64,000 bases of DNA from an uncultured Bacilli bacterium (GCA_934085675.1 CAKOHH010000001.1:6115-70114); one strand, 5' to 3'; positions 5,057-59,184 are shown, counted from the first letter of the stretch. Translations and numbers: made by a program. Notes: generated by a model not told the origin, from the letters alone.

Positions 5057-5064
5057 GTGGTTTT

Positions 5065-5838: not shown

Positions 5839-5958
5839 TACTTATTCCAAGAAGTAGCAATGATTTTTAATCTATACTTTAGAAAAAAAATGTGATATTC
5901 TTTAATAGTAGAAGAGAGTAATGTAATTGTACTCTTAAAATAGAAAGAGGTTCTCAAT

Positions 5959-8223
5959 ATGAATAATGAAAATGATAATTTGAGTAAAAAAGAAGATACG
6001 AAAGAACTTAATACTTTGAGTGATTTAGCCTTAGAATCTTTGGAAAACATGGCCAATGAGTATCAAAATGAATTTGATGAACATATGAAAGATTCGGATT
6101 TGATTTTTAAAACAGAGGTAGAAACGAAAGAAGAAATGAAAAAAGAAGAACCTCCTAAGAAAAAAAAGCCTTTAGATAAATTAAAAGATTGGTGGAAGTC
6201 ACTTGATAAAAAAAAGAAAATTATCTTTTCTATTATTGCTTTATTAATTGTACTATTAATTATAGGAATCATTGTTTTCTTCGCTTTTAAAAAAGATGAT
6301 TCTTCTTCCTTAACGAATCCTGATGTTATTTTAGAAAAAGATAATTATCGTTATGAAAATGGTACGCTTATTTTACTTGATAAAGATGGCAAAGAACTTG
6401 GTAAATATGAGTGTGAGAATAAAGACGAAAAACAATGCGAAGTGGCTTTTTTAAATCAAGATGCCGTGATGGATACAACAAGACTTGATAACGAAAAAGA
6501 AGAGCCTTTACAGCTTCGTTCTTCTATTTATCATAATCGGTTTGTTTTCATTAGAGATACAAAAGATGAAAATGTAAAAAACTATATTTTGTATGATCTA
6601 AAAGATGAAAAAATAATTAGTACAGTGTATGATGCTTTAACCAGTTATCAGTATGAAAATGATATCATTATCAAAAACGAAGAAAGTAAATATGGTTTAA
6701 TAGAATTAACTGAAGATGAAGCTAAAACGGTTATTCCTGCTACTTATGATGAATTGCATATTATTCCTAATCAAGAGGAATTAAAACTTGTTTCGGTTCG
6801 TAAAGATAACAATTCCTATGTATCTAATTTAGAAAATAAGCCTTTAACTAAAGCTTTTAATGAGACAATTGTGAATGCTAGTGATAAATATGTGGTAACA
6901 AAAAATAGTCAAAATAAATATCATGTTTATGATTATAATGCTAAAGAAGTAAATAAAAATGATAATCAAGACTATATTGTCCTTTTAAAAGATATTATGC
7001 TTTCTGTCCGTCAAAATAAGTTATATGTTTTAGATTATGAAGATAATTTATACAGCATGAAAGATATTGAATTAAAAAATAATGTTTATAATAAAACAGA
7101 AATTTACAATAATGATTTAAAACTTATAAATACCAAAAAATCATTTGATTATGAATTAACAGATGATATTCTTCTTATTAATGTTTATGATGATGAGGAG
7201 AAAACAAACTATAACGTTAACTTAAAAGAAGGTAGATTGTCTAAAACCCAAGCATTCTTAAGTTATTTTGATGGCTCTTTGTATATTTATGGTGATAGTA
7301 GCAAAAAAGAACTTTTAGGTTCTTATCGTTGTAACAATCAAAATACAATTGAAAATAATACCCAAAAATTTACTAATTGTACTATAGCCAGTGATTCTGT
7401 TTATAGAGAAACAAATGGAAATATGAAAGAAACAGGAGACGTTAAAGAAGGCTATATTCCTATTATTGGCAAAAAATATGCCTTCATTAAAGATGGTTCT
7501 AGTATTTATTTAGTTGATTTAAATAATACTACCAAACCAATTAGTGAATTTTCTAGTGTGGATACTTCTTCTTATACAGGTGGTGAAGATGTCACATTTA
7601 TAACTCCTTCTAATTTATATTTTATTGCTGTTTCAAAAGCAAGCGGTAAATACGGTGTAAATAAAATAACAAGTGAAGGCGTAAGTTCTGTTATTCAATT
7701 TAATAAATCTGAAATTAAACGTTTAGGCGACTACTTTGTTGTAACAGAAAATAATAAATATTCTTTGTATGATAAAAATGGTTCGAAACAAACTGAAGAT
7801 AAAGCTTCTCCTATTGTCGACTATTACAAAAATTATTTAAAAACTTTTAAAGATAACATGTTCTTTGTTCATTCATTTGCTAAAGAAATAAGTAGTACAG
7901 CCTATAATTATGTAGAACTTTATGATGATTTTTATGCCGCTGTTATTAATCATCGTGTTCATTTATATCGTTATGATGAACCAAATAAAGAGTTCATTTA
8001 TGAAGTAAATGGGGATGAAAAAGGTGAGAATGGACTTAAGCTTCTAACAGACCGTTATTATGGAAGTAATGTTAATGCCTTTAGAATAACTTTTGATAGT
8101 AAATATATTTATGTTGAAATTGGCAATACTAATAATACTTATAATGCTCCTTTAAAATTTTTATTAGACGGTAGTTATGTAAGTGAGAAAGAAGAGACGA
8201 CTGATGGACAAGAGAATAACTAA
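5959..8223 (+). CDS. Hypothetical bitopic membrane protein, acidic cytoplasmic N-terminus, single TM, large Asn/Lys/Tyr-rich extracytoplasmic domain
   Basis: 754 aa; TM IIFSIIALLIVLLIIGIIVFFAF after KKKK stretch; RBS AAAGAGG; follows pilC-pilD. Confidence 0.6.
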   Translation: MNNENDNLSKKEDTKELNTLSDLALESLENMANEYQNEFDEHMKDSDLIFKTEVETKEEMKKEEPPKKKKPLDKLKDWWKSLDKKKKIIFSIIALLIVLLIIGIIVFFAFKKDDSSSLTNPDVILEKDNYRYENGTLILLDKDGKELGKYECENKDEKQCEVAFLNQDAVMDTTRLDNEKEEPLQLRSSIYHNRFVFIRDTKDENVKNYILYDLKDEKIISTVYDALTSYQYENDIIIKNEESKYGLIELTEDEAKTVIPATYDELHIIPNQEELKLVSVRKDNNSYVSNLENKPLTKAFNETIVNASDKYVVTKNSQNKYHVYDYNAKEVNKNDNQDYIVLLKDIMLSVRQNKLYVLDYEDNLYSMKDIELKNNVYNKTEIYNNDLKLINTKKSFDYELTDDILLINVYDDEEKTNYNVNLKEGRLSKTQAFLSYFDGSLYIYGDSSKKELLGSYRCNNQNTIENNTQKFTNCTIASDSVYRETNGNMKETGDVKEGYIPIIGKKYAFIKDGSSIYLVDLNNTTKPISEFSSVDTSSYTGGEDVTFITPSNLYFIAVSKASGKYGVNKITSEGVSSVIQFNKSEIKRLGDYFVVTENNKYSLYDKNGSKQTEDKASPIVDYYKNYLKTFKDNMFFVHSFAKEISSTAYNYVELYDDFYAAVINHRVHLYRYDEPNKEFIYEVNGDEKGENGLKLLTDRYYGSNVNAFRITFDSKYIYVEIGNTNNTYNAPLKFLLDGSYVSEKEETTDGQENN

Positions 8224-9154
8224 AAGTGCCGGTATTACCATTGTTATTTTACTCGTCCTTTCTTCCTTTTTAGGGGGATATGGCATGTTTTTACATCATT
8301 CTAAAAAACAGATTATCATTAATAATGAAAAACCAAATACAAATAAAGAAAAATTTTTTGATAATAAATTATGGTTTTATTCGGAAGACGGAGAGTTAAT
8401 TGGTAATTATGAATGTGTTTCTAGTGAATGCGACATTGCTAAAAATACTGTGACTGATGGTACATATAAAAAGACTTTTATTGATTCTTCTGCTTACGTT
8501 AAAGTTATTCAAGATAGATATGCTTTTATTACAGATGATGGAATAACTTTCTTATATGATATAAAAACAAAATCAGCCTATAAAACTACAACTTATAAAG
8601 AAGTTAAAGATTATGGACAGGGACTAACTAATGATAATGTTATTTTAGCCGATATGGATGGTAATTATGGCGTAATGAGTTTTCTAAATATGCCCCATAT
8701 GCTTATTCCTTTTACTGATAATTATAAGTTCATTGGTCTTTCTTATGAAGAAAGTACAGAACTTTTAAATTCGGATTATTACATTGCTTTAAAAGATGGA
8801 ACTTGGAATATTATTGATACTAATGACGCGACTTTAACAGCAAATATTACTGAACCAATCGTAGCTTTTAATGGGGACGTTATTATCATTGAAACACTTA
8901 ATAATGATAATGTTTTGATTGATTATAATAATAATGAAAAATTAGATGGTCATTTTAAAAAATTATCTTTTACAGGTAAATATTTAAATTGTACAACAAA
9001 TGAAGATACTTTCTATGTTTACGATTTAATGAATAATAAAATAATTAGTGATACCTTTTCTTTGGCTGGTAATGAAGGTAAAACAATTTTAGAAGAAACA
9101 AATCTAAAAGTATATGTTGGTAATAGTTTAAGACAAACGATTAAACTATCTTGA
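8183..9154 (+). CDS. Hypothetical bitopic membrane protein, paralogous to the preceding gene
   Basis: 323 aa; N-in TM anchor; shares GxYEC...C motif just after the TM and YAFI[KT]D..YL.D motif with the 754-aa protein; overlaps its stop. Confidence 0.55.
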   Translation: MRKKRRLMDKRITKSAGITIVILLVLSSFLGGYGMFLHHSKKQIIINNEKPNTNKEKFFDNKLWFYSEDGELIGNYECVSSECDIAKNTVTDGTYKKTFIDSSAYVKVIQDRYAFITDDGITFLYDIKTKSAYKTTTYKEVKDYGQGLTNDNVILADMDGNYGVMSFLNMPHMLIPFTDNYKFIGLSYEESTELLNSDYYIALKDGTWNIIDTNDATLTANITEPIVAFNGDVIIIETLNNDNVLIDYNNNEKLDGHFKKLSFTGKYLNCTTNEDTFYVYDLMNNKIISDTFSLAGNEGKTILEETNLKVYVGNSLRQTIKLS

Positions 9155-12386: not shown

Positions 12387-13433
12387 ATGATGGTGATAAA
12401 AGTGAAGTCTAAAAAGAGATATATTTTATTTATATTATTTTTCTTCTTGCTTATTTTTGCCACTTATTATTTTATTTTAAAAGATTATTCTTTAGAAGCT
12501 TTAAAGTTTTCATTACAAAATTGCCATGTATCCACTTTATTATGGGGTCTTGTTTTTATGTCTTTTTATGCTTTTTGGGGAGCATTTTTCTTAAAAAGAA
12601 TGTTATTTCATTTTGGTAAAAAAGCAACTTTATTAGCTTCTTTAGGCTATGTTTGTACAGAAAATTATTTTTCAGCCATAACTCCTAGTAGTATGGGAGG
12701 ACAACCTGTTGAAATGTATGAAATGAATAAAGATAATATTCCTTATCGAATTAATTGTATTATTATTCTTCTTAATACTATTCTTTATAAAATTGCCTTA
12801 ATATTATTAGCTTTCATTTTATTTCCTATTTATTTTCATTCTTTGTTTTCAATTAACAAAGTCTTTACGATTTTAGTAATATTAGGATTTGCCACGACCA
12901 TTTTGGTTATATTTCTTTTCTTACTTCTGGTATATAGTCATAAAATTTTTCCTCAATTTATGATAAGATTAATTCATTTAGGAAGTAGACTTCATTTAGT
13001 TAAAGACGAAAAAAAGAAAAAAGATGAATTTCAGAAAGCTTTGAAAGACTATAAGGCCTGTGCTGAACTCACCAAAAAGAAACCCCTTATTTTATTAGAA
13101 GGCTTATTTTATATGATTTTTCAAAGACTTTCTTTGCTTGGTGTTAGTTATATTATTTATTTATCATTTGGACTTCATGATTATAGTATCTTTTACTTAA
13201 TTGCTGTTCAAGTAGGAATTACCCTAGCCAGTGATTTTGTTCCCTTTCCGGGAGGAGTTGTCGTTAGTGAAAACCTTTTATTAGCCATTAATGAATCAGT
13301 TTATGGACCGTTACTAGCAACTTCAGCGATGATTTTACTAAGAACCATAAGTTTTTATTTATTTGTTATTTTTTGTGCAATAGTTTATTTAATATTTCAT
13401 TCCATTAAAAGAAAGAGAGTAGTAGATTTATGA
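12387..13433 (+). CDS. Polytopic membrane protein, YbfM/UPF0104 (lysylphosphatidylglycerol-synthase TM-domain-like) family
   Basis: 348 aa, ~8 TM helices; position in a ybfM-pssA-psd type phospholipid operon. Confidence 0.6.
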   Translation: MMVIKVKSKKRYILFILFFFLLIFATYYFILKDYSLEALKFSLQNCHVSTLLWGLVFMSFYAFWGAFFLKRMLFHFGKKATLLASLGYVCTENYFSAITPSSMGGQPVEMYEMNKDNIPYRINCIIILLNTILYKIALILLAFILFPIYFHSLFSINKVFTILVILGFATTILVIFLFLLLVYSHKIFPQFMIRLIHLGSRLHLVKDEKKKKDEFQKALKDYKACAELTKKKPLILLEGLFYMIFQRLSLLGVSYIIYLSFGLHDYSIFYLIAVQVGITLASDFVPFPGGVVVSENLLLAINESVYGPLLATSAMILLRTISFYLFVIFCAIVYLIFHSIKRKRVVDL

Positions 13434-14050
13434 TAGGAATTTTTGATTATACAACGTTATTTACGTTTTTAGGAACTTTATGTGGCATATTAAGTATATA
13501 TTTTTCTATGTCCGGTTCTCTTTTATATAGTTTATTATGCTTGATGGCCTCTGGACTTTTCGATTCTTTAGATGGCACGGTTGCAAGGACTAAAAAGAAT
13601 CGCTCTGATTTTGATAAAAGATATGGCATTCAATTAGACTCTTTATCAGATGTTATTTGTTTTGGGACGGCCCCTTTATTTATTGGTCTTACGATTGCTA
13701 AAGATAATATGTGGCTTCAAGTTTTATGCTTAATTTATCTTTTAACGGCTATTTCACGTCTTGCCTGGTTTAATGTGGATGAAGAAATTAGAAGAACAAA
13801 AGAAACAACGGCAAGAAAGTATTATACAGGTCTTCCTGTGACACCTGCTGCGCTTATTTTTCCCACTGTTTATTTGCTTTTTCATAATTTTACAGAAGTT
13901 TTTTCTTATATTTATATAGCAAGTATGATTGTTGTAGCCATACTGCAAATATCAAAACTTAAAGTTCCTCATTTAAAAGGAAAGGGTGAAACCATATGTG
14001 TGATTTACGGGATAGTTCTTCTTGGAGCTCTGCTACACTTTTGTATGTAA
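13430..14050 (+). CDS. pssA: CDP-diacylglycerol--serine O-phosphatidyltransferase (CDP-alcohol phosphatidyltransferase family)
   Basis: DGxxAR...G...G...D...D motif (DSLDGTVARTKKNRSDFDKRYGIQLDSLSDVICFGTAP); ATGA overlap with upstream gene. Confidence 0.85.
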   Translation: MIGIFDYTTLFTFLGTLCGILSIYFSMSGSLLYSLLCLMASGLFDSLDGTVARTKKNRSDFDKRYGIQLDSLSDVICFGTAPLFIGLTIAKDNMWLQVLCLIYLLTAISRLAWFNVDEEIRRTKETTARKYYTGLPVTPAALIFPTVYLLFHNFTEVFSYIYIASMIVVAILQISKLKVPHLKGKGETICVIYGIVLLGALLHFCM

Positions 14051-14868
14051 AAGAATATCAGGAAAATAAGTTTTTATCTTTTCTTTATGAAAATAATTTA
14101 GGTCAAAAATTGCTGCCATTAATTACCTCAAAAGGTTTAACTACTTTAATGGGAAAGTTTTATGATTCTAGATTATCTAAAAAAATAATTCCAGGTTTTA
14201 TAAAGAAAAACCAAATGGATATAAAACCTTATAAGAAAAAAGAGTATACGAGTTTTAATGATTTTTTTACGAGAGAAAAAAAGAAGATAAACTTTTCTTC
14301 AGTTTCCAAAGATTTATGTTCACCATGTGACGCTTATTTAAGCGCTTATCGTATTGATTTGCAAAGTAAATTTAAGATAAAGGGATTAGAATACTCTTTA
14401 GAAGATTTAATTTTAAATCAAGGATTAGCCCAAAAATATAAAGGTGGCCTTTTATATATCTTTCGTCTTATCCCAACAAATTACCACCGTTACCATTATT
14501 TTGATGATGGCAACCTTTTATTTGTTAAAAAAATAAAGGGTGCTTTTCATACTGTTCGAGATGTTGCTTTAAAGAAAACGCATGTTTATTTAGAAAATAC
14601 AAGAGAATATTCTTTTATAGAAACAAAAAACTTTAAAGAGGTAATATATCTCGAAGTTGGAGCTTTAGGTGTTGGAAAAATCTTTAATCATTATCAAAAA
14701 AATTTTAAAAGAGGAGAAGAAAAGGGGATGTTTTTCTTTGGGGGTTCCACGGTGATTTTATGTTTTATGAAAGACACTTTAAAAGAGCCTGTAAAGTTAC
14801 TAGAAAAATCTTTAAAAGGGGAAGAGGCTGTGGTAAAATGTGGACAGAAAATAGGTGAAATTAAATGA
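13996..14868 (+). CDS. psd: Phosphatidylserine decarboxylase proenzyme
   Basis: C-terminal GST self-cleavage motif (FFFGGSTVIL); N-terminus resembles Firmicutes Psd; start uncertain (overlaps pssA by 55 nt). Confidence 0.85.
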   Translation: MCDLRDSSSWSSATLLYVKEYQENKFLSFLYENNLGQKLLPLITSKGLTTLMGKFYDSRLSKKIIPGFIKKNQMDIKPYKKKEYTSFNDFFTREKKKINFSSVSKDLCSPCDAYLSAYRIDLQSKFKIKGLEYSLEDLILNQGLAQKYKGGLLYIFRLIPTNYHRYHYFDDGNLLFVKKIKGAFHTVRDVALKKTHVYLENTREYSFIETKNFKEVIYLEVGALGVGKIFNHYQKNFKRGEEKGMFFFGGSTVILCFMKDTLKEPVKLLEKSLKGEEAVVKCGQKIGEIK

Positions 14869-15245
14869 ATAAAAAAGGATTTACACTAGTGGAGCTAGTT
14901 ATTACTATTGCTCTTTTAGGTGTCTTGGGCATGGTTATTGTCTCCAATATGAGTGGCATTTTAAATAAAGAGCAGGATAAACAATACGATCTTTTTAAAA
15001 CAACTCTTTCGAAGGCCGCTTGTAGTTATATTCATTTAAATGCCGGCAAAACACTTCGAAGTACATGTGTTACTAGGGGTAAATGTGATGTGGCTGTAAC
15101 TGTCTTATTAGAACAAGGCCTTATTAGTGATGATGATTTAATAGATCCTCGAAAACACGAGAAGATTTCTTCTAAAACATATGTTGAAATCACTTATCAA
15201 AATAGCGAATTTACTTGTTCAGTTGATTCTTTAGATTCAAAATAA
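14865..15245 (+). CDS. Type IV pilin-like / ComGC-like pseudopilin (class III signal peptide)
   Basis: MNKKG|FTLVELVITIALLGVLGMVI: prepilin cleavage site G|F, Glu+5, hydrophobic helix; ATGA overlap with psd. Confidence 0.8.
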   Translation: MNKKGFTLVELVITIALLGVLGMVIVSNMSGILNKEQDKQYDLFKTTLSKAACSYIHLNAGKTLRSTCVTRGKCDVAVTVLLEQGLISDDDLIDPRKHEKISSKTYVEITYQNSEFTCSVDSLDSK

Positions 15246-15396: not shown

Positions 15397-15420
15397 AAAG
15401 AAGACTTATTCGTCTTCTTT
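15397..15420. terminator. Bidirectional hairpin between comGC-like gene (+) and gatD (-)
   Basis: AAAGAAGAC(ttattc)GTCTTCTTT; overlaps gatD stop codon; T-rich flank on plus strand. Confidence 0.45.
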
Positions 15421-16137
15421 TTCGTTTAATAAATTTTTTTGATATTCATGGTAAGCAGTAATTTCAATTTCATCTTCAAAGGGCTTGTATTCTAATTTTC
15501 GTTGCTTTAATATTTCCTTAATTATTTTTTCTGTAAAATAAGGATTACGAATAAATATAGGACCTAGAAGATAAGTGCCATAAAAATGTTTCTTTAAAAT
15601 ACCATCTTTTGTTTCATTCGGAGCATAACCTGTTCCAGATTTAACCGTGAATAAATTTTTTTCATGCACATTTTTTAAAACCGAATTTCTATTTTCAAAA
15701 CCAATAACTTCATCTTTTAAATCTTTCATTTCAAATACTTGTTCACCAACAATGCGGAAATCTGTTTCATAACTTTGATATTTAAATAAGCCTAATGTTT
15801 CATATTTGACATCATCTACTGTTGTGAAACTTTCGCCAAAGAAATCTAGGGCATTACCGGTCACAAAGAAAAATTTATTTTTATTATAAGCCTTAACTAT
15901 ATCTTCTTTTCTTTTCATTAAATCATTTAAAGAAAGAAGAAAGGATTCTTTAGAGCCACTTCCTATATAAAAAATATCATAATCATCAAATTTAATTTTA
16001 TCATCAATACTTAAATTGTGTACAATGACACGGACATCATGACTTTCCAAATGATGAGTTAAACATCTTACATTGCCATGTTCACCATATAAATTCATGA
16101 GATCATAATATAAATGCGCTATTTTAATTGTTTCCAT
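15406..16137 (-). CDS. gatD: GatD-type glutamine amidotransferase-like subunit (CobB/CobQ-like GATase) of lipid II isoglutaminyl synthase; catalytic Cys apparently absent
   Basis: 243 aa, overlaps murT; conserved C-terminal GTYLxGP region; position of nucleophile elbow reads FVTGNAL with no Cys (only Cys at residue 25). Confidence 0.7.
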   Translation of the reverse strand: METIKIAHLYYDLMNLYGEHGNVRCLTHHLESHDVRVIVHNLSIDDKIKFDDYDIFYIGSGSKESFLLSLNDLMKRKEDIVKAYNKNKFFFVTGNALDFFGESFTTVDDVKYETLGLFKYQSYETDFRIVGEQVFEMKDLKDEVIGFENRNSVLKNVHEKNLFTVKSGTGYAPNETKDGILKKHFYGTYLLGPIFIRNPYFTEKIIKEILKQRKLEYKPFEDEIEITAYHEYQKNLLNEKEDE

Positions 16138-17467
16138 TATTGTACTCCTTTATTTTCTTTTTGATGATTTCTGTCATATCAAAACATACCATTGTATAAA
16201 TATCACCAATTGATTCTTTTTTTACTGTATCAATTAAATTGTTTAAATCGTCAATAAGAACGATTTTTTTAGCCTTAATCTTCGCATATTTAAGCCTTAC
16301 TAAAACATCCCATTTAAACCGGCCAATTAAAAATATTTTTTCAATACTGTCGTCATTTAGAAGTTCAAAATCAACATCCCAAAGCCAACTTAAATCATTA
16401 AATTTATATCTTCTTGAAACATTATCAAAACCTAAAATAACACTTTTTTGACCATCTTCGTTCACAATATATCGTAAAGACTGATAATAACTCAAAGCAT
16501 TTTCGTTTTTACTTTCAAGCATTAAAACATGTCGGTTATCAATCAAATATTCATGTCCTCTTTTAGATTCAATCATGTCGTCATTTAAAGCATATAAAAT
16601 TTGTTTCTCTTTAATACCTATGGTATTTGTAAGAGCATAGGCCGCTAAGGTAGCATAGGCTGTAAAAAAGAAATTTTTATTTAAGCAAACCTCATTATTG
16701 TTAATTAACATTGTTTTATTTTTTAAATCAACTTTAGTTGCCGTATAATCAGGGTTTCCTCTTTTAAAGTCACAGTTTTGGCAATAATAAGAACCAATAT
16801 GACCATAATGATAATAATAATACACAAGTTTTTTATGACATTTTGGACAGTAAGCATTATCTACTGAAAAGTTTTCTTTTTTAGAATAAGAATCTTTTGT
16901 CTTATTAATACCATAAGTAACTATTTTACCCTTAAAGTTAATTTTTTCTTTCATAAGACCTGGGTCATCAGCGTTTAAAATAAGCGTTGTTTGCTCATCT
17001 ATGGCATTAAAAATAGCGTCATAAATAAGATCTGGAGAACCGTTTCTAGCAGGTTGATCACGGGTAATATTGGTTACCACAAGATGTGTCATTTTATTTT
17101 TACCAAAAGCTAAATGTAAGTGCTTTTCATCAAGTTCTAAAAGTAAAACATCATGTTTAAACTTACCTGTTAAGGTACAGTTATTTAAAATTAAGGTTGT
17201 AATTCCCCGAATACCGTTACTTCCAGAGGCGTTATAACTAACATCTAAACCAGCATCTGTTAAAATATGATAAATCATTTGGGTTGTAGTGCCTTTACCA
17301 CTAGAACCAGTTACACCAATCACATATTTTGGATATTTAATTTTTTCTAGGACATGTTGATTCATATTGTAACTGATTGCTCCTGGAAATTGACTGCCGT
17401 TTCTATGAAATAATTTACAAACGAACGTCAATGTTTTGTTAACTATTATTTGTAAAGTTGTCATCAT
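16124..17467 (-). CDS. murT: Mur-ligase family lipid II isoglutaminyl synthase subunit MurT
   Basis: P-loop GVTGSSGKGTT, MurT-specific Cys4 ribbon (CPKCHKK...CQNCDF), C-terminal DUF1727-like DNVSRRYKFNDLSWLWDVDFE; start set at ATGATG 17467 (RBS GGTGA) because ORF-track start 17515 lies inside the promoter. Confidence 0.85.
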   Translation of the reverse strand: MMTTLQIIVNKTLTFVCKLFHRNGSQFPGAISYNMNQHVLEKIKYPKYVIGVTGSSGKGTTTQMIYHILTDAGLDVSYNASGSNGIRGITTLILNNCTLTGKFKHDVLLLELDEKHLHLAFGKNKMTHLVVTNITRDQPARNGSPDLIYDAIFNAIDEQTTLILNADDPGLMKEKINFKGKIVTYGINKTKDSYSKKENFSVDNAYCPKCHKKLVYYYYHYGHIGSYYCQNCDFKRGNPDYTATKVDLKNKTMLINNNEVCLNKNFFFTAYATLAAYALTNTIGIKEKQILYALNDDMIESKRGHEYLIDNRHVLMLESKNENALSYYQSLRYIVNEDGQKSVILGFDNVSRRYKFNDLSWLWDVDFELLNDDSIEKIFLIGRFKWDVLVRLKYAKIKAKKIVLIDDLNNLIDTVKKESIGDIYTMVCFDMTEIIKKKIKEYNNGNN

Positions 17468-17486: not shown

Positions 17487-17515
17487 ATTATAGCAAATAC
17501 CTTTCCATTTGACAA
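17487..17515 (-). promoter_or_regulatory. Sigma-A promoter for murT-gatD (TTGTCA-17-TATAAT)
   Basis: minus strand TTGTCAaatggaaaggtatttgcTATAAT, ~20 nt upstream of RBS GGTGATGAAAAG-ATG; -35 overlaps a plus-strand TTGACA facing xerC. Confidence 0.55.
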
Positions 17516-17545
17516 TAAAGATGCTAGAATTAAAACGTGATATAA

Positions 17546-18427
17546 ATGAAAAATAAAGTCGTAGAATTTTTACAATACTTGACAGATGTGAAGATGGTTT
17601 CTTCCAATACTGTGTTAGCTTATCAAACAGATTTAAATGAATTTGCCTTATTTTTAAAGGAACATAACTTGTCATATTTATCTTTAACTAAAGAAGATGT
17701 ACGAACATATTTAAAATTGTTGGATCAAGAAAAATTCAAAAACAAAAGTATTGCTAGACACTTAAGTGCTCTTCGTAGTTTTTACAGTTATTTAGAACAA
17801 AAAGGTGTAGTAGAAAATAATGTTTTTGAAAAAATTCATAATCCTAAACTAAATAAACCTTTACCTAATACCTTAAACTATGAAGAAACTGAGAAACTTT
17901 TACATTTTGATAAACTTGAAACGCCTTGGGATATTGAATGCAATCTTGTTTTAGAACTTCTTTATTCAACAGGCCTTCGTGTCAGTGAATTATCCGATAT
18001 TAAATTAAAGGATATTAATAGTTCAGAAAGAATTATCGTGGTTAAGGGAAAAGGGCAAAAATATCGCACGGTTTATTATGGCGAAGTAGCCAAAGATGTT
18101 TTAACTAAATACCTTGAAGTACGACTAAGTCTTTTAAATAAAGAAAAACATGATTATTTATTAGTAAATCAAAGGGGCGGAAAATTAAGCCGCAGTAGTA
18201 TTTTTAAAATACTAGAAAAAAAAGCCAAGTTATCAGGCCTTAATCATCATCTATCTCCTCATACATTAAGACATACTTTTGCAACACATCTTCTTTCAAA
18301 CGGCGCTGATATTAAAACGGTTCAAAACTTACTAGGTCATGAAAACTTAGGAACCACCGAAATTTACACACATTTATCTAATTCTTATTTGCAAGAAGAG
18401 TATCGCCACAAAATGATGCGAAAATGA
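17546..18427 (+). CDS. Tyrosine recombinase, XerC/XerD family
   Basis: 293 aa; catalytic R..HxxR..Y (RHTFATHLLSNGADIKTVQNLLGHENLGTTEIYTHL); N-terminal SAM-like core-binding domain. Confidence 0.85.
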   Translation: MKNKVVEFLQYLTDVKMVSSNTVLAYQTDLNEFALFLKEHNLSYLSLTKEDVRTYLKLLDQEKFKNKSIARHLSALRSFYSYLEQKGVVENNVFEKIHNPKLNKPLPNTLNYEETEKLLHFDKLETPWDIECNLVLELLYSTGLRVSELSDIKLKDINSSERIIVVKGKGQKYRTVYYGEVAKDVLTKYLEVRLSLLNKEKHDYLLVNQRGGKLSRSSIFKILEKKAKLSGLNHHLSPHTLRHTFATHLLSNGADIKTVQNLLGHENLGTTEIYTHLSNSYLQEEYRHKMMRK

Positions 18428-18552
18428 GGTCTTTTGAGAGTCTATTTCAATATAAAATAATCCGGCAGGTTGTTTAGTGTATTTCTAATATATTCTAAAA
18501 AAGCAATGTAATTAACTATTAAACGTGCTTCTTTAGATGATTGGTGTAAAAA

Positions 18553-18590
18553 ATGTTGACGATTTCTTATAAAAGGGGTTAAAATAAAAG
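18553..18590 (+). promoter_or_regulatory. Putative promoter for asnS T-box leader (TTGACG-18-TAAAAT)
   Basis: aatgTTGACGatttcttataaaaggggtTAAAATaaaag. Confidence 0.4.
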
Positions 18591-18594
18591 AGGT

Positions 18595-18815
18595 CTTTTA
18601 AGAAAGAGACGAGTAGAAAAGTATATTTATAACAAAGAGAGAGCTAGTGGGTGTAAATGCTTTTATAATGCTTTTTGAAAAACAACTCTTTATATCCTTA
18701 AAACGGTTGAACCGATAAAACTATTTTTGAGAGTACCTAGGTAAAATAAGGTGGCACCGCGGCTTTTTAAGTCGTCCTTATAAAATTACTTAGGTTTTTT
18801 TGTTAAAAGAAAGGG
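18595..18815 (+). promoter_or_regulatory. T-box leader upstream of asnS
   Basis: Canonical T-box AAATAAGGTGGCACCGCGG followed by terminator helix and T7; AGAGAGA and GGGTG stem-I elements; AAC triplet in candidate specifier region. Confidence 0.65.
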
Positions 18816-18825
18816 ATGAATAAAA

Positions 18826-20190
18826 ATGTATTTAATGGATATTTATAAAGATGAAGAGAAATTAATGGATAAAGAAATAAAGGTGAGTGGTTGGATTCGT
18901 AATCATCGACATGGCTCTAATTTTGGCTTTATTGATTTAGCAGATGGCACTTCTATTAAAAAACTTCAGGTTGTCTATGATACGACTTTACCAAATTTTA
19001 AAGAAGTGGATACAATTAACTTTGGCTCTTCTATTGAAGTAGAAGGTATCTTAAAAAAAGGAGAGGGAACGCAAAGTGTTGAATTAAAAGCTACAAAAAT
19101 AACCTTACTTGGCGAGTGTGCAAAAGATTATCCTTTACAACCTAAAAAACATAGTAAAGAATTTTTAAGAAGCATCGCTCATTTAAGACCAAGAGCAAAC
19201 TTATTCCAAGCCGTCTTTCGGATTCGTTCTTTGGCTGCTTTTGCCATTCACGAATACTTTCAATCAAGAGGTTATATTTACTTTAATGCTCCTTTAATTA
19301 CAGCATCTGACTGTGAAGGCGCTGGGGAAATGTTTCAAGTAACAACAATACCTTTAGATAAAATAAAAGGCGAAGTAGATTATAAAAAAGATTTCTTTGG
19401 TAAACAAACTTCTTTAACAGTATCTGGCCAATTAGAAGCTGAAACTTTTGCAACTGCTTTTTCCAAGGTTTACACCTTTGGCCCTACTTTTAGAGCAGAA
19501 AACTCAAATACCAAAACGCATGCTGCAGAATTTTGGATGGTCGAACCAGAAATTGCTTTCTGTGATTTAGATGAGTTAATGGATATTGAAGAAGATATGT
19601 TAAAACATGTTGTTTCTTATGTATTAGAACATGGTAAAGATGAATTAGCTTTCTTAGATAAATTCGTATCTAATGGCTTAATTAACAAACTAGAAACCTT
19701 AACTAAAAGTACTTTTACCCGTGTTACTCATGAAGAAGTTATTACTATTTTAAAAAATGCTAAGCAAAAATGGGAATTTGAACCAGAATATGGAGAAGAT
19801 ATTCATAAAGAACATGAAACCTTTATTACCGAATATTTTCATGGTCCTGTTTTCATCACTGATTGGCCTAAAGATATTAAAGCCTTTTATATGAAACAAA
19901 ATGAAGATGGTAAAACCGTTCGAGCTGTAGACTTAGAAGTTCCTTTATCCGGTGAACTTATGGGCGGTAGTCAAAGAGAAGAAGATTATGACAAGCTTTT
20001 AAAACGTATGGAAGAGCTTCATATGAATACCGAAGAGTTAAAATGGTATACCGATTTACGTAAATACGGTACGGTAGTCCATTCTGGTTTTGGTATGGGC
20101 TTTGAAAGACTTTTAATTTATCTAACTGGCGTTGATAACATTCGTGATGTTATTGCTTACCCAAGAGTTCCAGGTTCTTGTGAATTCTAG
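18826..20190 (+). CDS. asnS: Asparaginyl-tRNA synthetase
   Basis: 454 aa class IIb; FRAENSNTKTHAAEFWMVEPEIAF and GGSQREE/GFGMGFERL motifs characteristic of AsnRS rather than AspRS. Confidence 0.93.
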   Translation: MYLMDIYKDEEKLMDKEIKVSGWIRNHRHGSNFGFIDLADGTSIKKLQVVYDTTLPNFKEVDTINFGSSIEVEGILKKGEGTQSVELKATKITLLGECAKDYPLQPKKHSKEFLRSIAHLRPRANLFQAVFRIRSLAAFAIHEYFQSRGYIYFNAPLITASDCEGAGEMFQVTTIPLDKIKGEVDYKKDFFGKQTSLTVSGQLEAETFATAFSKVYTFGPTFRAENSNTKTHAAEFWMVEPEIAFCDLDELMDIEEDMLKHVVSYVLEHGKDELAFLDKFVSNGLINKLETLTKSTFTRVTHEEVITILKNAKQKWEFEPEYGEDIHKEHETFITEYFHGPVFITDWPKDIKAFYMKQNEDGKTVRAVDLEVPLSGELMGGSQREEDYDKLLKRMEELHMNTEELKWYTDLRKYGTVVHSGFGMGFERLLIYLTGVDNIRDVIAYPRVPGSCEF

Positions 20191-20326
20191 AGATGAACTA
20201 AACTTAAAAGAAGTCCTGATGATTTAAAACAAGTACTACTGGTATGGATAACTTAATGGGTTTCATAAGTAGTCTTACTGAAATACAATTAAAAAACTCA
20301 TTATCAGAGTAAGAGAGGAGAAAAAA

Positions 20327-20623
20327 ATGAATAAATTTACAAAAGAAATGATTGATAGTTATGCGGATAAATTACTTATTGGCTTAACCGATGAAGAAAA
20401 AGATATGATAACTCTTGAATTCGATAATATTGATAAGAGTATACAATCTGTTTTAGAAATACCTAATTTAAGTGAAGTAGAGCCTATGACACATACTTTA
20501 GATGATTTTGTTTACGAATTAAGAGAAGATGAACCAGAAGAATCGGTTCCAATTGATGATTTATTAAGAAATAGTGGCGATGAAGACGGTGCCTACATCG
20601 TCGTACCAAAGGTGGTGGGATAA
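20327..20623 (+). CDS. gatC: Glu/Asp-tRNA(Gln/Asn) amidotransferase subunit C
   Basis: 98 aa, immediately precedes gatA/gatB; RBS AGAGAGGAG. Confidence 0.9.
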   Translation: MNKFTKEMIDSYADKLLIGLTDEEKDMITLEFDNIDKSIQSVLEIPNLSEVEPMTHTLDDFVYELREDEPEESVPIDDLLRNSGDEDGAYIVVPKVVG

Positions 20624-22075
20624 ATGATGGATAAAAGTATTAGTTTCTTACATGAAAAATTAATTAATAAGGAAGTGACAAGTGATGAACTTGTTAAAGA
20701 GTCTTTAGAAAAATCACATGAAGTTCAAGCCTCATGTAATGCCTTTGTTACCATTTTAGATGATGCAAAAGGCACTGAAGTAACAGATAACTTATTATCT
20801 GGTATTCCTTATGGTGTTAAAGATAATTATTCTACGGCTGGTGTTTTATCAACGGGTTCTTCTAACATCTTAAAAAACTATGTACCATTTTTTGATGCAA
20901 CTGCTGTTAAAAACTTAAAAAAAGCTGGCGCGATTATGGTTAATAAAACTGCTTTAGACGAATTTGGAATGGGGGGAACCGGAACAACTTGTCATACAGG
21001 TGTTGTGACAAACCCTTGGGATCACACAAGAATGACTGCAGGATCATCTGCTGGTTCTGCAGCTGCTGTCGCGGCTGGTGTTTATCCTTATGCTCTTGGA
21101 AGTGATACTGGGGACTCTATTCGTAAACCGGCGGCTTACTGTGGTATTGTTGGTTACAAACCTACTTATGGTATGATTAGTCGTTATGGGTTATTTCCTT
21201 TTGCTTCTAGTTTAGACCACTGTGGTGTTTTAACAAGAAGTGTTTTAGATGCCGCCATCGTAGTTGATGCTATGAAAGGTATTGATAAAAATGATATGAC
21301 TAGTTTTGATAGTAAAGATATCCATTTAAAAGACGCTCTTCAAAAAGATATACCTTTAAAGAAAGTTTGTTATATTAAAGAAATATGTGATATGAATCGT
21401 TACCCTAATGCTAGTGATGAATTAAAAAGTCATTTAGAAAACTTCCATAATACTTTAAAACATTTTAAAGATTTAGGTATTGAAGTAGATGAAGTATCCG
21501 TTGATGAAAAACTTTTAAAGGCTGTGGCAAGTGTCTATGTTATTATTTCTTGCGCTGAAGCAAGTAGTAATATGTCTAACTTAACTGGTATCATTTTTGG
21601 CCCAAGAGGTGAGGGTGATAATTACATTGATATGATGAAAGATGCCCGTACTAAAGGATTCTCAAGTTTAATTAAACGTCGTTTTGTGATAGGCTCTTAT
21701 GTTTTACAAAAAGAAAATCAAGACCGATATTTCCATAATGCTCAACGTGTTCGTCGTTTAATTGTAGATACTTACAAAAATTTATTCAAAGAATATGATG
21801 CCGTTATTTTACCAGTGGGATCAGGACCAGCTAAAAAACTTAGTGAAGCTAAAAATATTTTAGATGAAAATACGCAAGTCTTAGAAGAACATTTACAAAT
21901 TGGTAACTTTGGTGGTTTCCCATCTATAACTATTCCTGATGGCTTTGTAAATGGCTTACCTGTAGGTATTAATATTACGGGTAATTGTTATGAAGATGAA
22001 AAAGTTTTAAAATTAGCATCCTTATTAGAAAGTCAAATGAATTATAAAGGCCAAATTGCTAAGGAGGTAAAATAA
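20624..22075 (+). CDS. gatA: Glu/Asp-tRNA amidotransferase subunit A (amidase signature family)
   Basis: 483 aa; amidase signature GGSSGGSAAAVAAG-like (AGSSAGSAAAVAAG), Ser-cisSer-Lys. Confidence 0.95.
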   Translation: MMDKSISFLHEKLINKEVTSDELVKESLEKSHEVQASCNAFVTILDDAKGTEVTDNLLSGIPYGVKDNYSTAGVLSTGSSNILKNYVPFFDATAVKNLKKAGAIMVNKTALDEFGMGGTGTTCHTGVVTNPWDHTRMTAGSSAGSAAAVAAGVYPYALGSDTGDSIRKPAAYCGIVGYKPTYGMISRYGLFPFASSLDHCGVLTRSVLDAAIVVDAMKGIDKNDMTSFDSKDIHLKDALQKDIPLKKVCYIKEICDMNRYPNASDELKSHLENFHNTLKHFKDLGIEVDEVSVDEKLLKAVASVYVIISCAEASSNMSNLTGIIFGPRGEGDNYIDMMKDARTKGFSSLIKRRFVIGSYVLQKENQDRYFHNAQRVRRLIVDTYKNLFKEYDAVILPVGSGPAKKLSEAKNILDENTQVLEEHLQIGNFGGFPSITIPDGFVNGLPVGINITGNCYEDEKVLKLASLLESQMNYKGQIAKEVK

Positions 22076-23532
22076 TGAGTAAATATATTGCTAAAATTGG
22101 CTTAGAAATGCACTGTGAGATATCAAAAACTAAAAGTAAAGTATTCTCAAGTGCAAGAAACACTTATTCAGATGAGCCAAACTCTTCGGTAAGACCTTTA
22201 GATATGGCTTTCCCAGGAACTTTGCCAGTTGTTAATAAAGAAGCCGTAAGACTTTCTTTAATGGCTTCCATGATTATGCATTGTTCGCAACCAGAATATA
22301 TGTATTTTGAAAGAAAAAACTACTATTATCCTGATTTACCAAAAGGTTTTCAATTAACGCAAGAAACTAAACCAATACCCGTTGGTATTTATGGTTATGT
22401 AGATTATGAATGTGATGGAGAAATGAAACGTGTACGCGTTAATAATATTCACTTAGAAGAAGATGCGGCTAGTCTTGATCACTATGAAACAACATCGACA
22501 ATTGATTATAATAGAGCAGGAGTGCCTTTACTAGAACTTGTTACTGAGCCAGATTTTCATTCAGCCAATGAGGCAGTGGCTTTTCTAGAACATATGCGTC
22601 GTACTTATCAATATGCTGGTATTTCAGATGCCGATCCTAAAAAAGGCCAAATTAGATGTGATGTGAACGTATCTATTATGGATAACAGTCTTGATGAAGA
22701 AAATCCAGCAAACTGGGGTACTAAAATTGAAATTAAAAATGTTAACTCTTTTGGTGGTGTAAGAGATGCCATTAACTATGAGATTGAAAGACAAACAGAA
22801 CTTAAAGAAAATGGCACTTATGATGAAATGCCACAGCAAACAAGAAGATGGGATGAAGATACTTTTAGCACGATTTACATGCGTAGTAAAGCCGATGCCG
22901 TTGATTACAAATATTTTGTAGAACCTAATATTCCTAAATTTAAAATTAGTCCTTCTTGGTTAGAAGAAATAAGATCTTCTATTCCAAAACTAGCTCATGA
23001 ACGTAAAGAAGATTATACGAGAAACTATGGTTTATCTTCTTATGACGCTAATGTCCTAGTTAAAGATAAAGCTATTTCTGATTATTTTGAAGAATGTTTA
23101 AAACTCTCTATAGATCCTAAAACAGCGTCTAATTGGATAACTGTTACTATTGTGGGTGAACTTAATAAAGAAAATATAAATATTAGTGACTTTTTTATTA
23201 CTCCTGTTTATTTAAAACAAATTATTGATGGTATCAAAGATGGGATTTTATCTTCCAAACAAGCCAAAGAAGTTTTTTATAAAGCCCTTGAAGAGAAAAA
23301 AGAACCGAAAAACTTTATTAGTAAGGAAAATGGCCAAATTTCAGATACCACTGAACTTACTTCAATTATTGTAAATATTCTTGATAAAAATCAAACGCAA
23401 ATTGAGGCTTATAAAGCAGGAAAAACAAATTTATTTGATTATTTCGTTGGTCAAGTTATGAAAGAAACAAGAGGAAAAGCCAATCCTGTTTTAACCAAAG
23501 AAATTTTAACACAGGAACTTAATAAAAAATAA
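22075..23532 (+). CDS. gatB: Glu/Asp-tRNA amidotransferase subunit B
   Basis: 485 aa; MAFPGTLPV, NRAGVPLLE(L)VTEPD motifs; ATGA overlap with gatA. Confidence 0.95.
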   Translation: MSKYIAKIGLEMHCEISKTKSKVFSSARNTYSDEPNSSVRPLDMAFPGTLPVVNKEAVRLSLMASMIMHCSQPEYMYFERKNYYYPDLPKGFQLTQETKPIPVGIYGYVDYECDGEMKRVRVNNIHLEEDAASLDHYETTSTIDYNRAGVPLLELVTEPDFHSANEAVAFLEHMRRTYQYAGISDADPKKGQIRCDVNVSIMDNSLDEENPANWGTKIEIKNVNSFGGVRDAINYEIERQTELKENGTYDEMPQQTRRWDEDTFSTIYMRSKADAVDYKYFVEPNIPKFKISPSWLEEIRSSIPKLAHERKEDYTRNYGLSSYDANVLVKDKAISDYFEECLKLSIDPKTASNWITVTIVGELNKENINISDFFITPVYLKQIIDGIKDGILSSKQAKEVFYKALEEKKEPKNFISKENGQISDTTELTSIIVNILDKNQTQIEAYKAGKTNLFDYFVGQVMKETRGKANPVLTKEILTQELNKK

Positions 23533-23690
23533 AAGTGAAAGTAACTTTTAAAATTCAGTTTTTAAAAAAAATAACGGTGTACCGTTAGCATTTTCTAAAA
23601 AAGTATGTTATAATGTCTATGGATGAGGAAAAACTCATCTATAGCCTCGGCTATTAAGTCCTTAGTTTTTACTTAGGATAGGGTTTACGG

Positions 23691-23725
23691 AAAAATAGAT
23701 AGGCAAAAGCGTCTATCTATTTTTG
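23691..23725. terminator. Bidirectional Rho-independent terminator between gatB (+) and HTH gene (-)
   Basis: AAAAATAGATAG(gcaaaagcgt)CTATCTATTTTT, A-run/T-run on both sides. Confidence 0.6.
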
Positions 23726-23750
23726 TTTGTGATAATTTTTTCTAAATCTT

Positions 23751-24011
23751 TTAAGAATTAATTTTTGATTTAGGATAAGGTTTGCGAATATCAGTAAGCC
23801 CTAATAAATAATCTATACTGACATCATAAAATTTAGCCAGCATGGCTATTTTATCAATAGGCATAACTCTAATACCACGTTCATATCTGGAATATTGTAC
23901 TTGGCTAGTTTTCAAAACTTTGGCAATATCCACTTGCTGTAAATCACGGTCTTGTCTAATTTCTTTTAATCTATCTATATTCAACTTTATCACCCAACAC
24001 CATTTTTTCAT
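23751..24011 (-). CDS. XRE-family helix-turn-helix transcriptional regulator
   Basis: 86 aa; HTH_3-like QQVDIAKVLKTSQVQYSRYERG; start codon uncertain. Confidence 0.7.
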   Translation of the reverse strand: MKKWCWVIKLNIDRLKEIRQDRDLQQVDIAKVLKTSQVQYSRYERGIRVMPIDKIAMLAKFYDVSIDYLLGLTDIRKPYPKSKINS

Positions 24012-24133
24012 ATAACCAAATAGTTATCTTAAATTTATTACCAATCAGTTATATCATATGAATAACCTTCTAAATATATAATGAAAATAACTAATAAAAT
24101 AAGAAAGACAACTAAATAATTTTTTAAACAGCA

Positions 24134-24163
24134 TTGCTAATCGTTTTATTTTATTGTATAATT
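24134..24163 (+). promoter_or_regulatory. Sigma-A promoter (TTGCTA-17-TATAAT, TG-extended) driving a structured leader
   Basis: TTGCTAatcgttttattttatTGTATAAT. Confidence 0.5.
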
Positions 24164-24169
24164 TAATTA

Positions 24170-24340
24170 CCAAGTGTAAGATAGTTACATAAAACCGACT
24201 ATGGTGATATACGGGAATCAGAACCTTATATGGTGTAGAAAACTAATCCGTTAAGTGCATTAGGATCCTAAAATGTAAGTGAGATGCCCACCTGCGAGAA
24301 AGCGGGGATTTTATCACGCTGACTTACATTTGGTTTTTTT
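24170..24340 (+). promoter_or_regulatory. Structured 5' leader with intrinsic terminator (riboswitch/attenuator-like, class not assigned)
   Basis: ~170-nt leader; terminator AAATGTAAGT...ACTTACATTT + T7 at 24271-24340; alternative pairing GGTGATA(24202)/TATCAC(24311); internal hairpin CCUGC-GAGAAA-GCGGG. Confidence 0.5.
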
Positions 24341-24362
24341 ATGAAATAAAGGTTGTGATATT

Positions 24363-25052
24363 ATGTTTGAAAGAATTGAAAGATTATTAGAAATTGAAAC
24401 TATCAATAAAATAAAAGAGACAAAGATTTTGTTAATTGGTTTAGGTGGTGTGGGAGGCTATACCTTTGAATCTCTTCTTAGAACAGGATTTAAAGAAATA
24501 GCTGTCATAGACAAGGATGTTTTTGACATTACCAATTTAAATAGGCAAATTTACGCCACAACAAAAACTATTGGCATAGATAAAGTCGAGGCGGCCTTTA
24601 AAAGAGCTACTTTAATTCCTTCAAATACCCTTGTTACAAGGATTAAAAAAGAATTAACAGAAGAAGATATTACTAAAGAGTTTTTAACTAATTATGACTA
24701 TATTTTAGATGCTTGTGACTGCGTACCGGTAAAAATTAAACTCATTGAAGTATGTAGTAGAGAAAAAATAAAACTGATTACATGTATGGGAACAGCCAAT
24801 AAAACACATCCTGAAATGCTTCAGATTGTTCCTCTTAAAAATACGCAAAGTGATCCTTTAGCTAAAAAAATTCGTAACAAATTAAGTAAGAATCCTAAAG
24901 CTATGAAATCTATATGTGTTTGTAGTTTAGAAGTTCCTAAACACCAAGCTCTTTTAGGTACCATTTGTGCAGTACCAATGGCAGCCGGGGCAATGATGTC
25001 TAGTTATGTAATTAATGACATTAAAAAAACAGCTATTAATCATGAAAAATAG
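24363..25052 (+). CDS. ThiF/MoeB/TcdA-family E1-like adenylyltransferase-fold protein (tRNA ct6A dehydratase-like)
   Basis: 229 aa; Rossmann GxGxxG (LIGLGGVGGYTFESL), DxD...NRQ motif; no C-terminal CxxC pair. Confidence 0.75.
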   Translation: MFERIERLLEIETINKIKETKILLIGLGGVGGYTFESLLRTGFKEIAVIDKDVFDITNLNRQIYATTKTIGIDKVEAAFKRATLIPSNTLVTRIKKELTEEDITKEFLTNYDYILDACDCVPVKIKLIEVCSREKIKLITCMGTANKTHPEMLQIVPLKNTQSDPLAKKIRNKLSKNPKAMKSICVCSLEVPKHQALLGTICAVPMAAGAMMSSYVINDIKKTAINHEK

Positions 25053-25920: not shown

Positions 25921-25921
25921 A

Positions 25922-27118: not shown

Positions 27119-27146
27119 ATATATCACCTTTGTTAAGTATATCAGT

Positions 27147-27175
27147 TTGACAACCTTTTGAAAAGACTTTATACT
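27147..27175 (+). promoter_or_regulatory. Sigma-A promoter for second xer-family gene (TTGACA-17-TATACT)
   Basis: TTGACAaccttttgaaaagacttTATACT, 15 nt upstream of ATG 27191. Confidence 0.55.
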
Positions 27176-27190
27176 TATCTTGTGATAAAT

Positions 27191-28066: not shown

Positions 28067-28092
28067 GGAAGAAATAAATCATTCTTCCTTAT
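28064..28092 (+). terminator. Hairpin after xer gene
   Basis: AAGGAAGAA(ataaatcat)TCTTCCTT followed by A/T-rich tract. Confidence 0.45.
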
Positions 28093-28198
28093 TAAATTAA
28101 TCACAATTTTTTTCTTGATTTCTAGATTCACGTTTTTGATTTTGGTTATTATTTTTACGTTCTTGTTTTCTAGAATTGTTTTTTTGATTTTTTTTCAT
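28088..28198 (-). CDS. Small highly basic Lys/Asn/Gln-rich protein (36 aa), not in ORF track
   Basis: minus strand GGGAGGtaaaataaaatATG...; translation MKKNQKNNSRKQERKNNNQNQKRESRNQEKNCD*; strong SD at 10-nt spacing. Confidence 0.35.
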
Positions 28199-28334
28199 AT
28201 TTTATTTTACCTCCCACTAGTATTATGGATAAAGATTAAAAAAAGATACGTAAATTAAATAACAAATATTGGTAAAAAAGAGACTTGAGATTTTAGAAAT
28301 TTTCGGCTAAAATATATTGACGTAGGGGGAGTTT

Positions 28335-29375: not shown

Positions 29376-29400
29376 GACATACACTTTATTAGGTGATACT

Positions 29401-49142: not shown

Positions 49143-49186
49143 AAACGCCTATCATAAAATAGAATTATGATTGGCGTTTTTTGACA
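49143..49186. terminator. Bidirectional terminator between def (+) and 375-aa gene (-)
   Basis: AAAAACGCC(A)...TGGCGTTTTTT; minus-strand gene stop codon lies inside the hairpin. Confidence 0.6.
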
Positions 49187-59165: not shown

Positions 59166-59184
59166 CTACGAAAAAGGATATGAA

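Follow-up and report, generated by a model that had tools for sequence, protein, structure and literature searches.

Can a MurT/GatD complex dispense with the glutaminase chemistry for which it is known? MurT/GatD is regarded as an essential amidotransferase that depends strictly on glutamine, and it is considered a drug target; amidation affects both peptidoglycan cross-linking and how innate receptors of the host recognize muropeptides. The question is raised by a gatD-like gene in a 64,000-nucleotide stretch of DNA, referred to here as the window, from an uncultured Bacilli bacterium (GCA_934085675.1 CAKOHH010000001.1:6115-70114). The product of this gene has the class I (CobB/CobQ-type) amidotransferase fold of GatD but lacks the catalytic Cys and His. 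Our analyses indicated that it represents a large, ancient sister family, found in abundant uncultured gut Bacilli and in cultured Oscillospiraceae, that gave up glutaminase chemistry and yet appears to have kept the complex, and that the nitrogen source is most likely to be free ammonia.

A GatD fold without the catalytic Cys and His

The assignment of the gene product was supported by several independent comparisons. The protein matched Pfam GATase_3 (E 1.4e-15), and its closest solved relatives in a phmmer search of the PDB were the GatD proteins of S. aureus, S. pyogenes and S. pneumoniae (E 6e-24 to 2e-19), of which S. aureus GatD (5n9m/6gs2) was the best match (E 6e-24) and was colinear with residues 3-228. 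An AlphaFold2 model, built with 55 relatives as input, had a predicted local distance difference test (pLDDT) of 91.8 and a predicted template-modeling score (pTM) of 0.90, and its terminal helix (residues 223-236) corresponds to the extra C-terminal helix specific to GatD. The top nine PDB matches to this model in Foldseek were GatD chains only (TM 0.81-0.86; 5n9m, TM 0.85).

The features of the gene that are discussed below are as follows.

15406..16137, minus strand: GatD-like subunit, 243 residues (open reading frame (ORF) call, Pfam, NCBIfam, PDB phmmer, AlphaFold2, Foldseek)
16072..16095, minus strand: NLYGEHGN, residues 15-22, the lid/gate loop, conserved
15853..15861, minus strand: codons for Thr93-Gly94-Asn95 (ACC GGT AAT), the remodeled elbow (Ile93-Cys94-Gly95 in S. 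aureus), read from the sequence
15748..15759, minus strand: FRIV with Arg128, the Arg kept in the window subtype and in 84% of the family
15559..15579, minus strand: GTYLLGP, residues 187-193, with Leu191 (15565-15567) in place of the catalytic His and the MurT-docking Gly192 and Pro193 kept

Residues 90-101 of the protein read FFVTGNALDFFG and residues 187-193 read GTYLLGP. In the alignment with S. aureus GatD, "tICGGyqflG" paired with "vTGNAldffG" and "GTYLHGP" with "GTYLLGP", such that Gly94 stands opposite Cys94 and Leu191 opposite His189 in both the HMMER and the MAFFT alignments. The block holding these positions is gapless and is anchored by G59xG61, F100-G101 and R128. In the model, strand 89-94 runs directly into helix 95-100, which places Gly94 at the position of the nucleophile elbow. 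The window protein thus has T-G-N-A where canonical GatD has I-C-G-G, and its oxyanion strand reads GSG instead of GGG. A preliminary description of the locus had proposed a GatD homologue lacking the catalytic Cys, with its lone Cys at residue 25 and with GTYLLGP in place of the motif bearing the catalytic His. The alignment, the model and the homologues agree with it on each of these points, and they add that the His-equivalent position is residue 191 in the numbering of the protein itself.

The same state was found throughout the relatives of the window protein. All 120 of the closest database proteins (50-98% identity) had Gly at the Cys site and Leu or Ile at the His site, and Gly together with a non-His residue was present in 501 of the 504 full-length homologues gathered. 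An exhaustive phmmer search covered 1.84 billion cluster representatives. Its best 150 matches, with identities of 29-47% for near-full-length matches and up to 95% for short fragments, all combined a T-G-N elbow with a residue other than His at the His site, except for P0252 and P0264, which are canonical ICGG/GTYLHGP proteins. A family profile matched 3739 clusters at E <= 1e-10, some of them possibly canonical.

Among 122 full-length representatives, Gly94 was present in 100%, Thr93 in 89% and Asn95 in 87%, and the His-equivalent column of the family held Ile (47%), Leu (28%) and Thr (15%), with Val also seen. The elbow had not decayed, but had been re-fixed as T-G-N, while the former His column had become variable, with aliphatic or small residues. 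Judging from the model, Gly would fit the strained conformation of the elbow once a nucleophile was dispensable, and Thr and Asn, which are good helix N-caps, may satisfy the backbone NH groups of the former oxyanion hole.

The gatD-like gene is under strong purifying selection, as is murT. Ratios of nonsynonymous to synonymous substitution rates (dN/dS) for unsaturated pairs spanned 0.025-0.072 in the gatD-like gene, against 0.025-0.065 in murT, and independent assemblies were 97-99% identical.

Close relatives of the window protein came from animal-gut metagenome-assembled genomes (MAGs) labeled uncultured Bacilli, Tenericutes or Firmicutes, and from Candidatus Ventrenecus. These hosts agree with Bacilli of the RF39/RFN20/ML615J-28 type, which are walled and reduced (PMC10868615). 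A second Cys-less subtype ("PGK") has the motifs DLYGD...GPGK...TGN...GFINRT...TWxLGP and has lost Arg128 as well; its hosts are Oscillospiraceae, including the cultured Zongyangia hominis and Hydrogenoanaerobacterium, and Erysipelotrichaceae MAGs. Examples of this subtype are L043 8001-8726 (Zongyangia hominis, GCA_014385095.1), L044, P0154, P0189, P0203, P0235, P0245 and P0458. In a rough neighbor-joining tree without support values, the four canonical sequences lay apart from all the Cys-less ones, which suggests one old split between the two. The loss of the Cys, then, defines a very large and old subfamily with at least two subtypes, a point that the preliminary description had missed.

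The window GatD-like protein scored far below the cutoffs of the NCBIfam equivalog models for GatD (NF045636 and NF052463; 100.4 bits with a cutoff of 400, and 94.8 bits with a cutoff of 450), and it had weak NCBIfam matches to cobB and CfbB. The latter belong with the CobQ/CobB group of GATase_3 domains (PF07685), which is the same Pfam domain family; however, those domains are fused to a CobQ/CobB ATPase domain and keep the Cys/His dyad, whereas the window domain is stand-alone, is paired with MurT and is nearest to GatD in both sequence and fold. The window GatD-like and MurT-like proteins fit the description of a sister subfamily better than that of members of the characterized GatD and MurT families. 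Source annotations of the family were either "hypothetical protein", which is uninformative, or "glutamine amidotransferase", which is probably wrong. Full-text searches of the literature returned no description of a natural Cys-less GatD, a pseudo-glutaminase GatD, this MurT subfamily or a link between MurT and B-type walls. The distribution survey in PMC6085368 makes no mention of Cys-less GatDs, and the only relevant mention in the Bulleidia paper was its MurT phylogeny.

The partner MurT and its pairing with the GatD-like protein

As in the canonical MurT/GatD systems of S. aureus, S. pneumoniae and S. pyogenes (6gs2, 6h5e, 6fqb, 9sq9), the two window genes form an overlapping operon, with murT upstream and its stop overlapping the gatD-like start by 14 nt. 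The features of the murT-like gene and its control region are listed here.

16124..17467, minus strand: MurT-like Mur-ligase subunit, 447 residues from ATG 17467 (Pfam Mur_ligase_M and MurT_C; PDB; homologues)
17515-17487, minus strand: promoter-like site, TTGTCA, 17-nt spacer and TATAAT with extended TG, 11/12 consensus and the best of the region
17480-17475, minus strand: AGGTGA, ribosome-binding site for murT, read from the sequence
17285..17308, minus strand: P-loop GSSGKGTT (GTNGKTTT in canonical MurT), by alignment
16772..16849, minus strand: Cys4 zinc ribbon CPKC...CQNC, by alignment
16370..16426, minus strand: DNVSRRYKFNDLSWLWDVD, with DNAADGR replaced by DNVSRRYKF and the equivalents of D349, Y354 (W360 in S. 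pneumoniae) and D355 kept
16145..16150, minus strand: AAGGAG, the ribosome-binding site of the gatD-like gene, which lies within the end of murT and 7 nt ahead of the ATG, from reading of the sequence

The true start of murT is almost certainly ATG 17467, as judged from the sequence, because the TTG at 17515 that begins the longest ORF coincides with the -35 hexamer, AGGTGA precedes the ATG, and homologues align from residue 17 of the longest ORF, which is the Met of ATG 17467. The position of the gatD-like ribosome-binding site within the end of murT suggests translational coupling of the two genes.

The MurT-like protein matched PF08245 (E 2e-14) and PF08353 (E 9.7e-21), with no N-terminal UDP-binding domain, and S. 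aureus MurT in the PDB (6gs2_B, E 1.6e-41). Like its partner, it fell far below the cutoffs of the NCBIfam equivalogs (NF045635 and NF052464, 174.8 and 168.5 bits, cutoff 800). Canonical MurT and the window protein share the Mur-ligase middle domain, the Cys4 ribbon and MurT_C, and the window protein keeps the Mg-binding acidic pair (LELDE), the Asn of the GAN motif (GSN) and a P-loop, although the spellings vary. MurT had been described as intact; this stood for its features as an ATP ligase, namely the P-loop, the CxxC...CxxC ribbon and the MurT_C domain, but the protein is not canonical, and DNAAD and several other motifs have been replaced.

These replacements were not confined to the window. 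The MurT partners of Cys-less GatDs have a common signature that was absent from S. aureus MurT and from a canonical control locus in Thermosyntropha (L038).

P-loop: canonical GTNGKTTT; Cys-less partner GSSGKGTT in the closest group only, and GSNGKT/GTTGKT in distant partners
GAN motif: canonical GAN; Cys-less partner GSN
Active-site loop: canonical RDQxDRxGE; Cys-less partner RDQx(A/T)RNG(S/H/N), with two acidic residues lost
KNP motif: canonical KNPxG; Cys-less partner K-N-(E/Q)-N-x-x-S-(Y/F), with an insertion (KNEN..SY in the window)
DNAAD motif: canonical DNAADGR; Cys-less partner DNVSRRYK(Y/F), or NNINHT in the PGK subtype

The replacement of DNAAD carries a two-residue insertion, (D/x)N(V/I)SR(R/K)Y, whereas the control L038 keeps DNAADGR. 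In canonical MurT the DNAAD motif is conserved across Lys- and diaminopimelate (DAP)-type species and is directly connected to D349 (PMC6113224). The partner MurT has co-diverged with the Cys-less GatD, which keeps a different chemistry open and which had been missed in the preliminary description.

The pairing of the two genes was strict. In each of the 38 genome loci and 4 more distant contexts, the gene directly upstream of the Cys-less one was murT, and the other neighboring genes were unrelated. No second GATase_3 gene was found near murT in these 42 loci. The sole canonical match among the 38 genome loci was that of the unrelated genus Thermosyntropha. The surfaces through which the two canonical proteins meet are also conserved. 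On the GatD side, the family keeps the equivalents of F146, G21, G190, P191, K195 and A228, which are docking residues in the S. aureus and S. pneumoniae complexes (PMC6113224, PMC6085368), together with the NLYG-x-x-GN lid, G59xG61, Arg128 (in the window subtype), GF-x-N, the G-P that follows the former His and the Ala of the C-terminal helix. The lid loop, which closes over the active site in canonical GatD and is directed toward the opening of MurT (PMC6085368, PMC5871853), was among the best conserved elements (N15 89%, L16 97%, Y17 95%, G18 and N22 invariant). MurT turns D349, Y354/W360 and D355/D361 toward GatD, and the complex does not form without the W360-G34 contact (PMC6113224, PMC6085368). 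The window sequence NDLSWLWDVD aligned with RDTSWIYDAD of S. aureus, and all three residues of this GatD-facing Asp/Trp/Asp gate were kept.

Natural fusions of the two proteins were also found. P0211 (793 residues) and P0242 (435 residues, a fragment) are Mur_ligase_M-MurT_C-GATase_3 fusions with an A-T-G-N elbow, and they serve as Rosetta-stone evidence that the dead glutaminase is likely to work with MurT still. Since the docking residues, the gate and the gene pairing have been kept and the fusions occur, the GatD-like and MurT-like proteins are predicted to still form a complex.

Nitrogen source and competing explanations

We consider it somewhat better than an even chance that the window pair is an ammonia-dependent complex that amidates the D-isoglutamate of lipid II, with GatD serving as a scaffold without catalytic activity or as a port for ammonia. 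In such a complex, the GatD-like subunit would be a pseudo-glutaminase, incapable of hydrolyzing glutamine, and the MurT-like subunit would activate the carboxyl group with ATP as canonical MurT does. The GatD-like protein would have been retained since the activity of MurT needs it to be docked on the MurT C-terminal domain, and it may also provide an entry port to the conserved gate into MurT. The target is plausibly a peptidoglycan precursor, as the organism makes a wall: the window contains genes for an FtsW/RodA protein, a sortase and an LCP protein. The closest relatives come from animal-gut MAGs, and the gut is rich in ammonia.

The strongest precedent is the engineered S. aureus GatD-C94G of Münch et al. 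[quoted passage not shown] The nucleophile substitution is identical to that in the window, and in the mutant, too, GatD was still needed. However, C94G is a laboratory mutant, whereas the window version is natural and family-wide, has lost the His and has a co-evolved MurT. With this precedent, the option of a pseudo-glutaminase scaffold supplied with free ammonia, which the preliminary description had offered, became the best supported of the predictions. A second precedent is carbamoyl phosphate synthetase (CPS) I of terrestrial vertebrates, whose class I amidotransferase domain has lost the catalytic Cys and yet been retained, with free ammonia as the sole nitrogen source (PMC7657897). The synthetase and pathway are unrelated to those of MurT/GatD and the CPS I domains are fused. 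The analogy with CPS I, as opposed to the glutamine-dependent CPS III, is one of evolutionary route and not of homology. If ammonia is used, the window family would be a natural prokaryotic parallel to the change of CPS III into CPS I, and wall amidation in these anaerobes would depend on ammonia from the environment or the cytoplasm instead of on the glutamine pool. Published assays can address the question directly, and one or more carriers of the family are in culture.

Several observations weigh against ammonia-dependent amidation. The ammonia-dependent reaction of S. aureus was seen at pH 8.5 only and not at pH 7.5 (PMC3266927), and efficient use of ammonia at cytoplasmic pH would thus need adaptation. 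The MurT changes in DNAAD, KNPxG and the acidic residues of RDQxDRxGE could mean another nucleophile or substrate, and the conserved T-G-N elbow, which fits a structural role, could reflect a new ligand site. Arg128, through which canonical GatD sequesters glutamine, has been kept in the window subtype; R128A in S. aureus GatD also kills the use of glutamine (PMC6113224, PMC5871853). Glutamine amide transfer occurs elsewhere in the cell, as the presence of gatCAB (20.3-23.5 kb) means that the cell still runs a glutamine-dependent amide transfer with an amidase-type glutaminase. The search for a second, canonical gatD covered the 64-kb window. Pfam searches of 50 ORFs, including all those of at least 120 residues, identified no second amidotransferase in the window, in which gatA and gatB were the only amide-transfer genes.

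The most serious competing explanation is that the diverged MurT attaches an amino acid or a diamine, rather than ammonia, to the D-isoglutamate alpha-carboxyl, with the GatD-like protein as a scaffold or nucleophile-binding site. The candidate nucleophiles are those of glycine- or diamine-substituted walls or of B-type cross-bridges. All partners of Cys-less GatDs share the C-terminal MurT signature (the DNAADGR, KNPxG and acidic loop changes), and the basic SRRY motif sits in the C-terminal domain, which in other Mur ligases binds the incoming amino acid. The MurE motif D(D,N)P(N,A) is cited in this connection in PMC6113224. Arg128 and the conserved T-G-N pocket could bind a carboxylate ligand, and the lineage is near Erysipelotrichales; among the cultured members of that order, which have B-type peptidoglycan, we know of no ligase assigned to the D-Glu alpha-carboxyl. 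On the other hand, the GatD-facing gate of MurT survives, as would suit the transfer of a small molecule from GatD into MurT, the PGK subtype does without Arg128, and the loss of DNAAD may simply reflect release from glutaminase coupling, given its direct link to D349. We consider this explanation unlikely, and only tentatively raise the proposal that the Cys-less pair is a widespread, hitherto unrecognized ligase for an amino acid or amine on the D-isoglutamate alpha-carboxyl of lipid II, instead of an amidase system. If it is correct, a missing peptidoglycan-diversifying enzyme would have been identified, for example the one that acts first in making B-type or otherwise alpha-substituted peptidoglycan in Bacilli related to Erysipelotrichales and in some Clostridia.

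Decidedly unlikely, in our assessment, is a role for the GatD-like protein as a sensor that binds glutamine or another metabolite without hydrolysis and allosterically gates an ammonia-dependent MurT. The NLYG lid, Arg128 and the G59xG61 strand have been conserved despite the loss of catalysis, and interdomain signaling between sites has been proposed for the canonical complexes (PMC3266927, PMC6113224). However, Arg128 was lost in the PGK subtype, and many of the conserved residues double as docking or gate residues, for which no ligand is needed.

We gave slightly less credence still to the possibility that ammonia reaches this MurT from a glutaminase, whether a canonical GatD or another, whose gene lies elsewhere in the genome, with the GatD-like protein as a non-catalytic paralogue that acts in regulation or assembly. 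The visible part of the genome is 64 kb, which leaves room for such a gene. Nevertheless, the docking surface has been conserved on the Cys-less protein and the fusions are covalent, such that the single GatD site would be occupied, and the 42 loci described above had one GATase_3 gene each near murT, with the only canonical one among the 38 genome loci in Thermosyntropha.

It is very improbable that the GatD-like protein is a cryptic glutaminase, for example one using Thr93 or Asn95 with Glu19 and a MurT Asp. Thr93 and Asn95 are newly conserved, and Glu/Asp19 and the MurT Asp have been kept. However, Thr93 is part of strand 89-94 and precedes the elbow by one residue, pairing it with Cys94 would need an indel in a gapless block, and the column of the general base is Leu/Ile/Thr/Val. 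In S. aureus, C94S, although a conservative substitution, abolishes activity (PMC6113224) and H189A abolishes glutaminase activity (PMC5871853). The suggestion in the preliminary description that a Ser or Thr replaces the Cys is accordingly unlikely, as is a one-residue shift in register that would make Thr93 the nucleophile. Cys25 was rejected as a displaced nucleophile, as its column is Ala/Val/Ile across the family. The idea that the gene arose from an error of sequencing or assembly, which had been raised at the outset, or that it is a pseudogene in decay was refuted by an intact ORF with a ribosome-binding site and translational coupling, the near-identity of independent assemblies, about 500 homologues in the same state and the low dN/dS, and no point in its favor was found.

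Other features of the window

The bacterium represented by the window is walled and probably sporulating. The window encodes an FtsW/RodA-family protein (46942-48105), a sortase, a MucBP surface protein, an LCP protein and SpoIVB. The gatC-gatA-gatB operon for the Asp/Glu-tRNA amidotransferase (~20326-23532, plus strand) lies 3 kb from the murT/gatD-like locus; gatA and gatB were identified by Pfam, and a small gatC-like ORF was read upstream of them.

The region ~17500-30000 looks like a replication terminus. Gene orientation converges there, with genes mostly on the plus strand to the left and on the minus strand to the right, the GC skew changes sign and the cumulative skew peaks near 24-28 kb. 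Two genes for XerC/XerD-type recombinases are present (17546-18427 and 27158-28066).

The other observations in the window are as follows.

3455-9154 and 14865-15245, plus strand: type IV pilus or competence-pilus set, with a T2SSF platform protein, a prepilin peptidase and a pilin, and two adjacent large ORFs without a Pfam match (5959-8223, 754 residues; 8183-9154, 323 residues); the pilin gene has an N-methylation motif and lies just downstream of psd
12387-14868, plus strand: phospholipid genes directly upstream of the pilin gene, for an LPG_synthase_TM-family membrane protein, a CDP-alcohol phosphatidyltransferase and a phosphatidylserine decarboxylase, the latter two ORFs overlapping by ~55 nt as listed
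37395-38390, minus strand: HipA_C-like kinase ORF (a weak match, 5.7e-09), flanked by nusB and by xseA (exonuclease VII large subunit), neighbors that are unusual for a HipA-type gene
49165-50292, minus strand: 375-residue ORF with a PBECR4 domain (phage Barnase/EndoU/ColicinE5-D/RelE-like nuclease), beside smc and def
55705-63966, minus strand: surface-protein cluster, with a sortase (59228-59923), a MucBP-domain protein (59908-61674), a sigma-70 family factor (61741-62370), an LCP-family protein (62788-63966), and ORFs of 708 and 217 residues without a Pfam match

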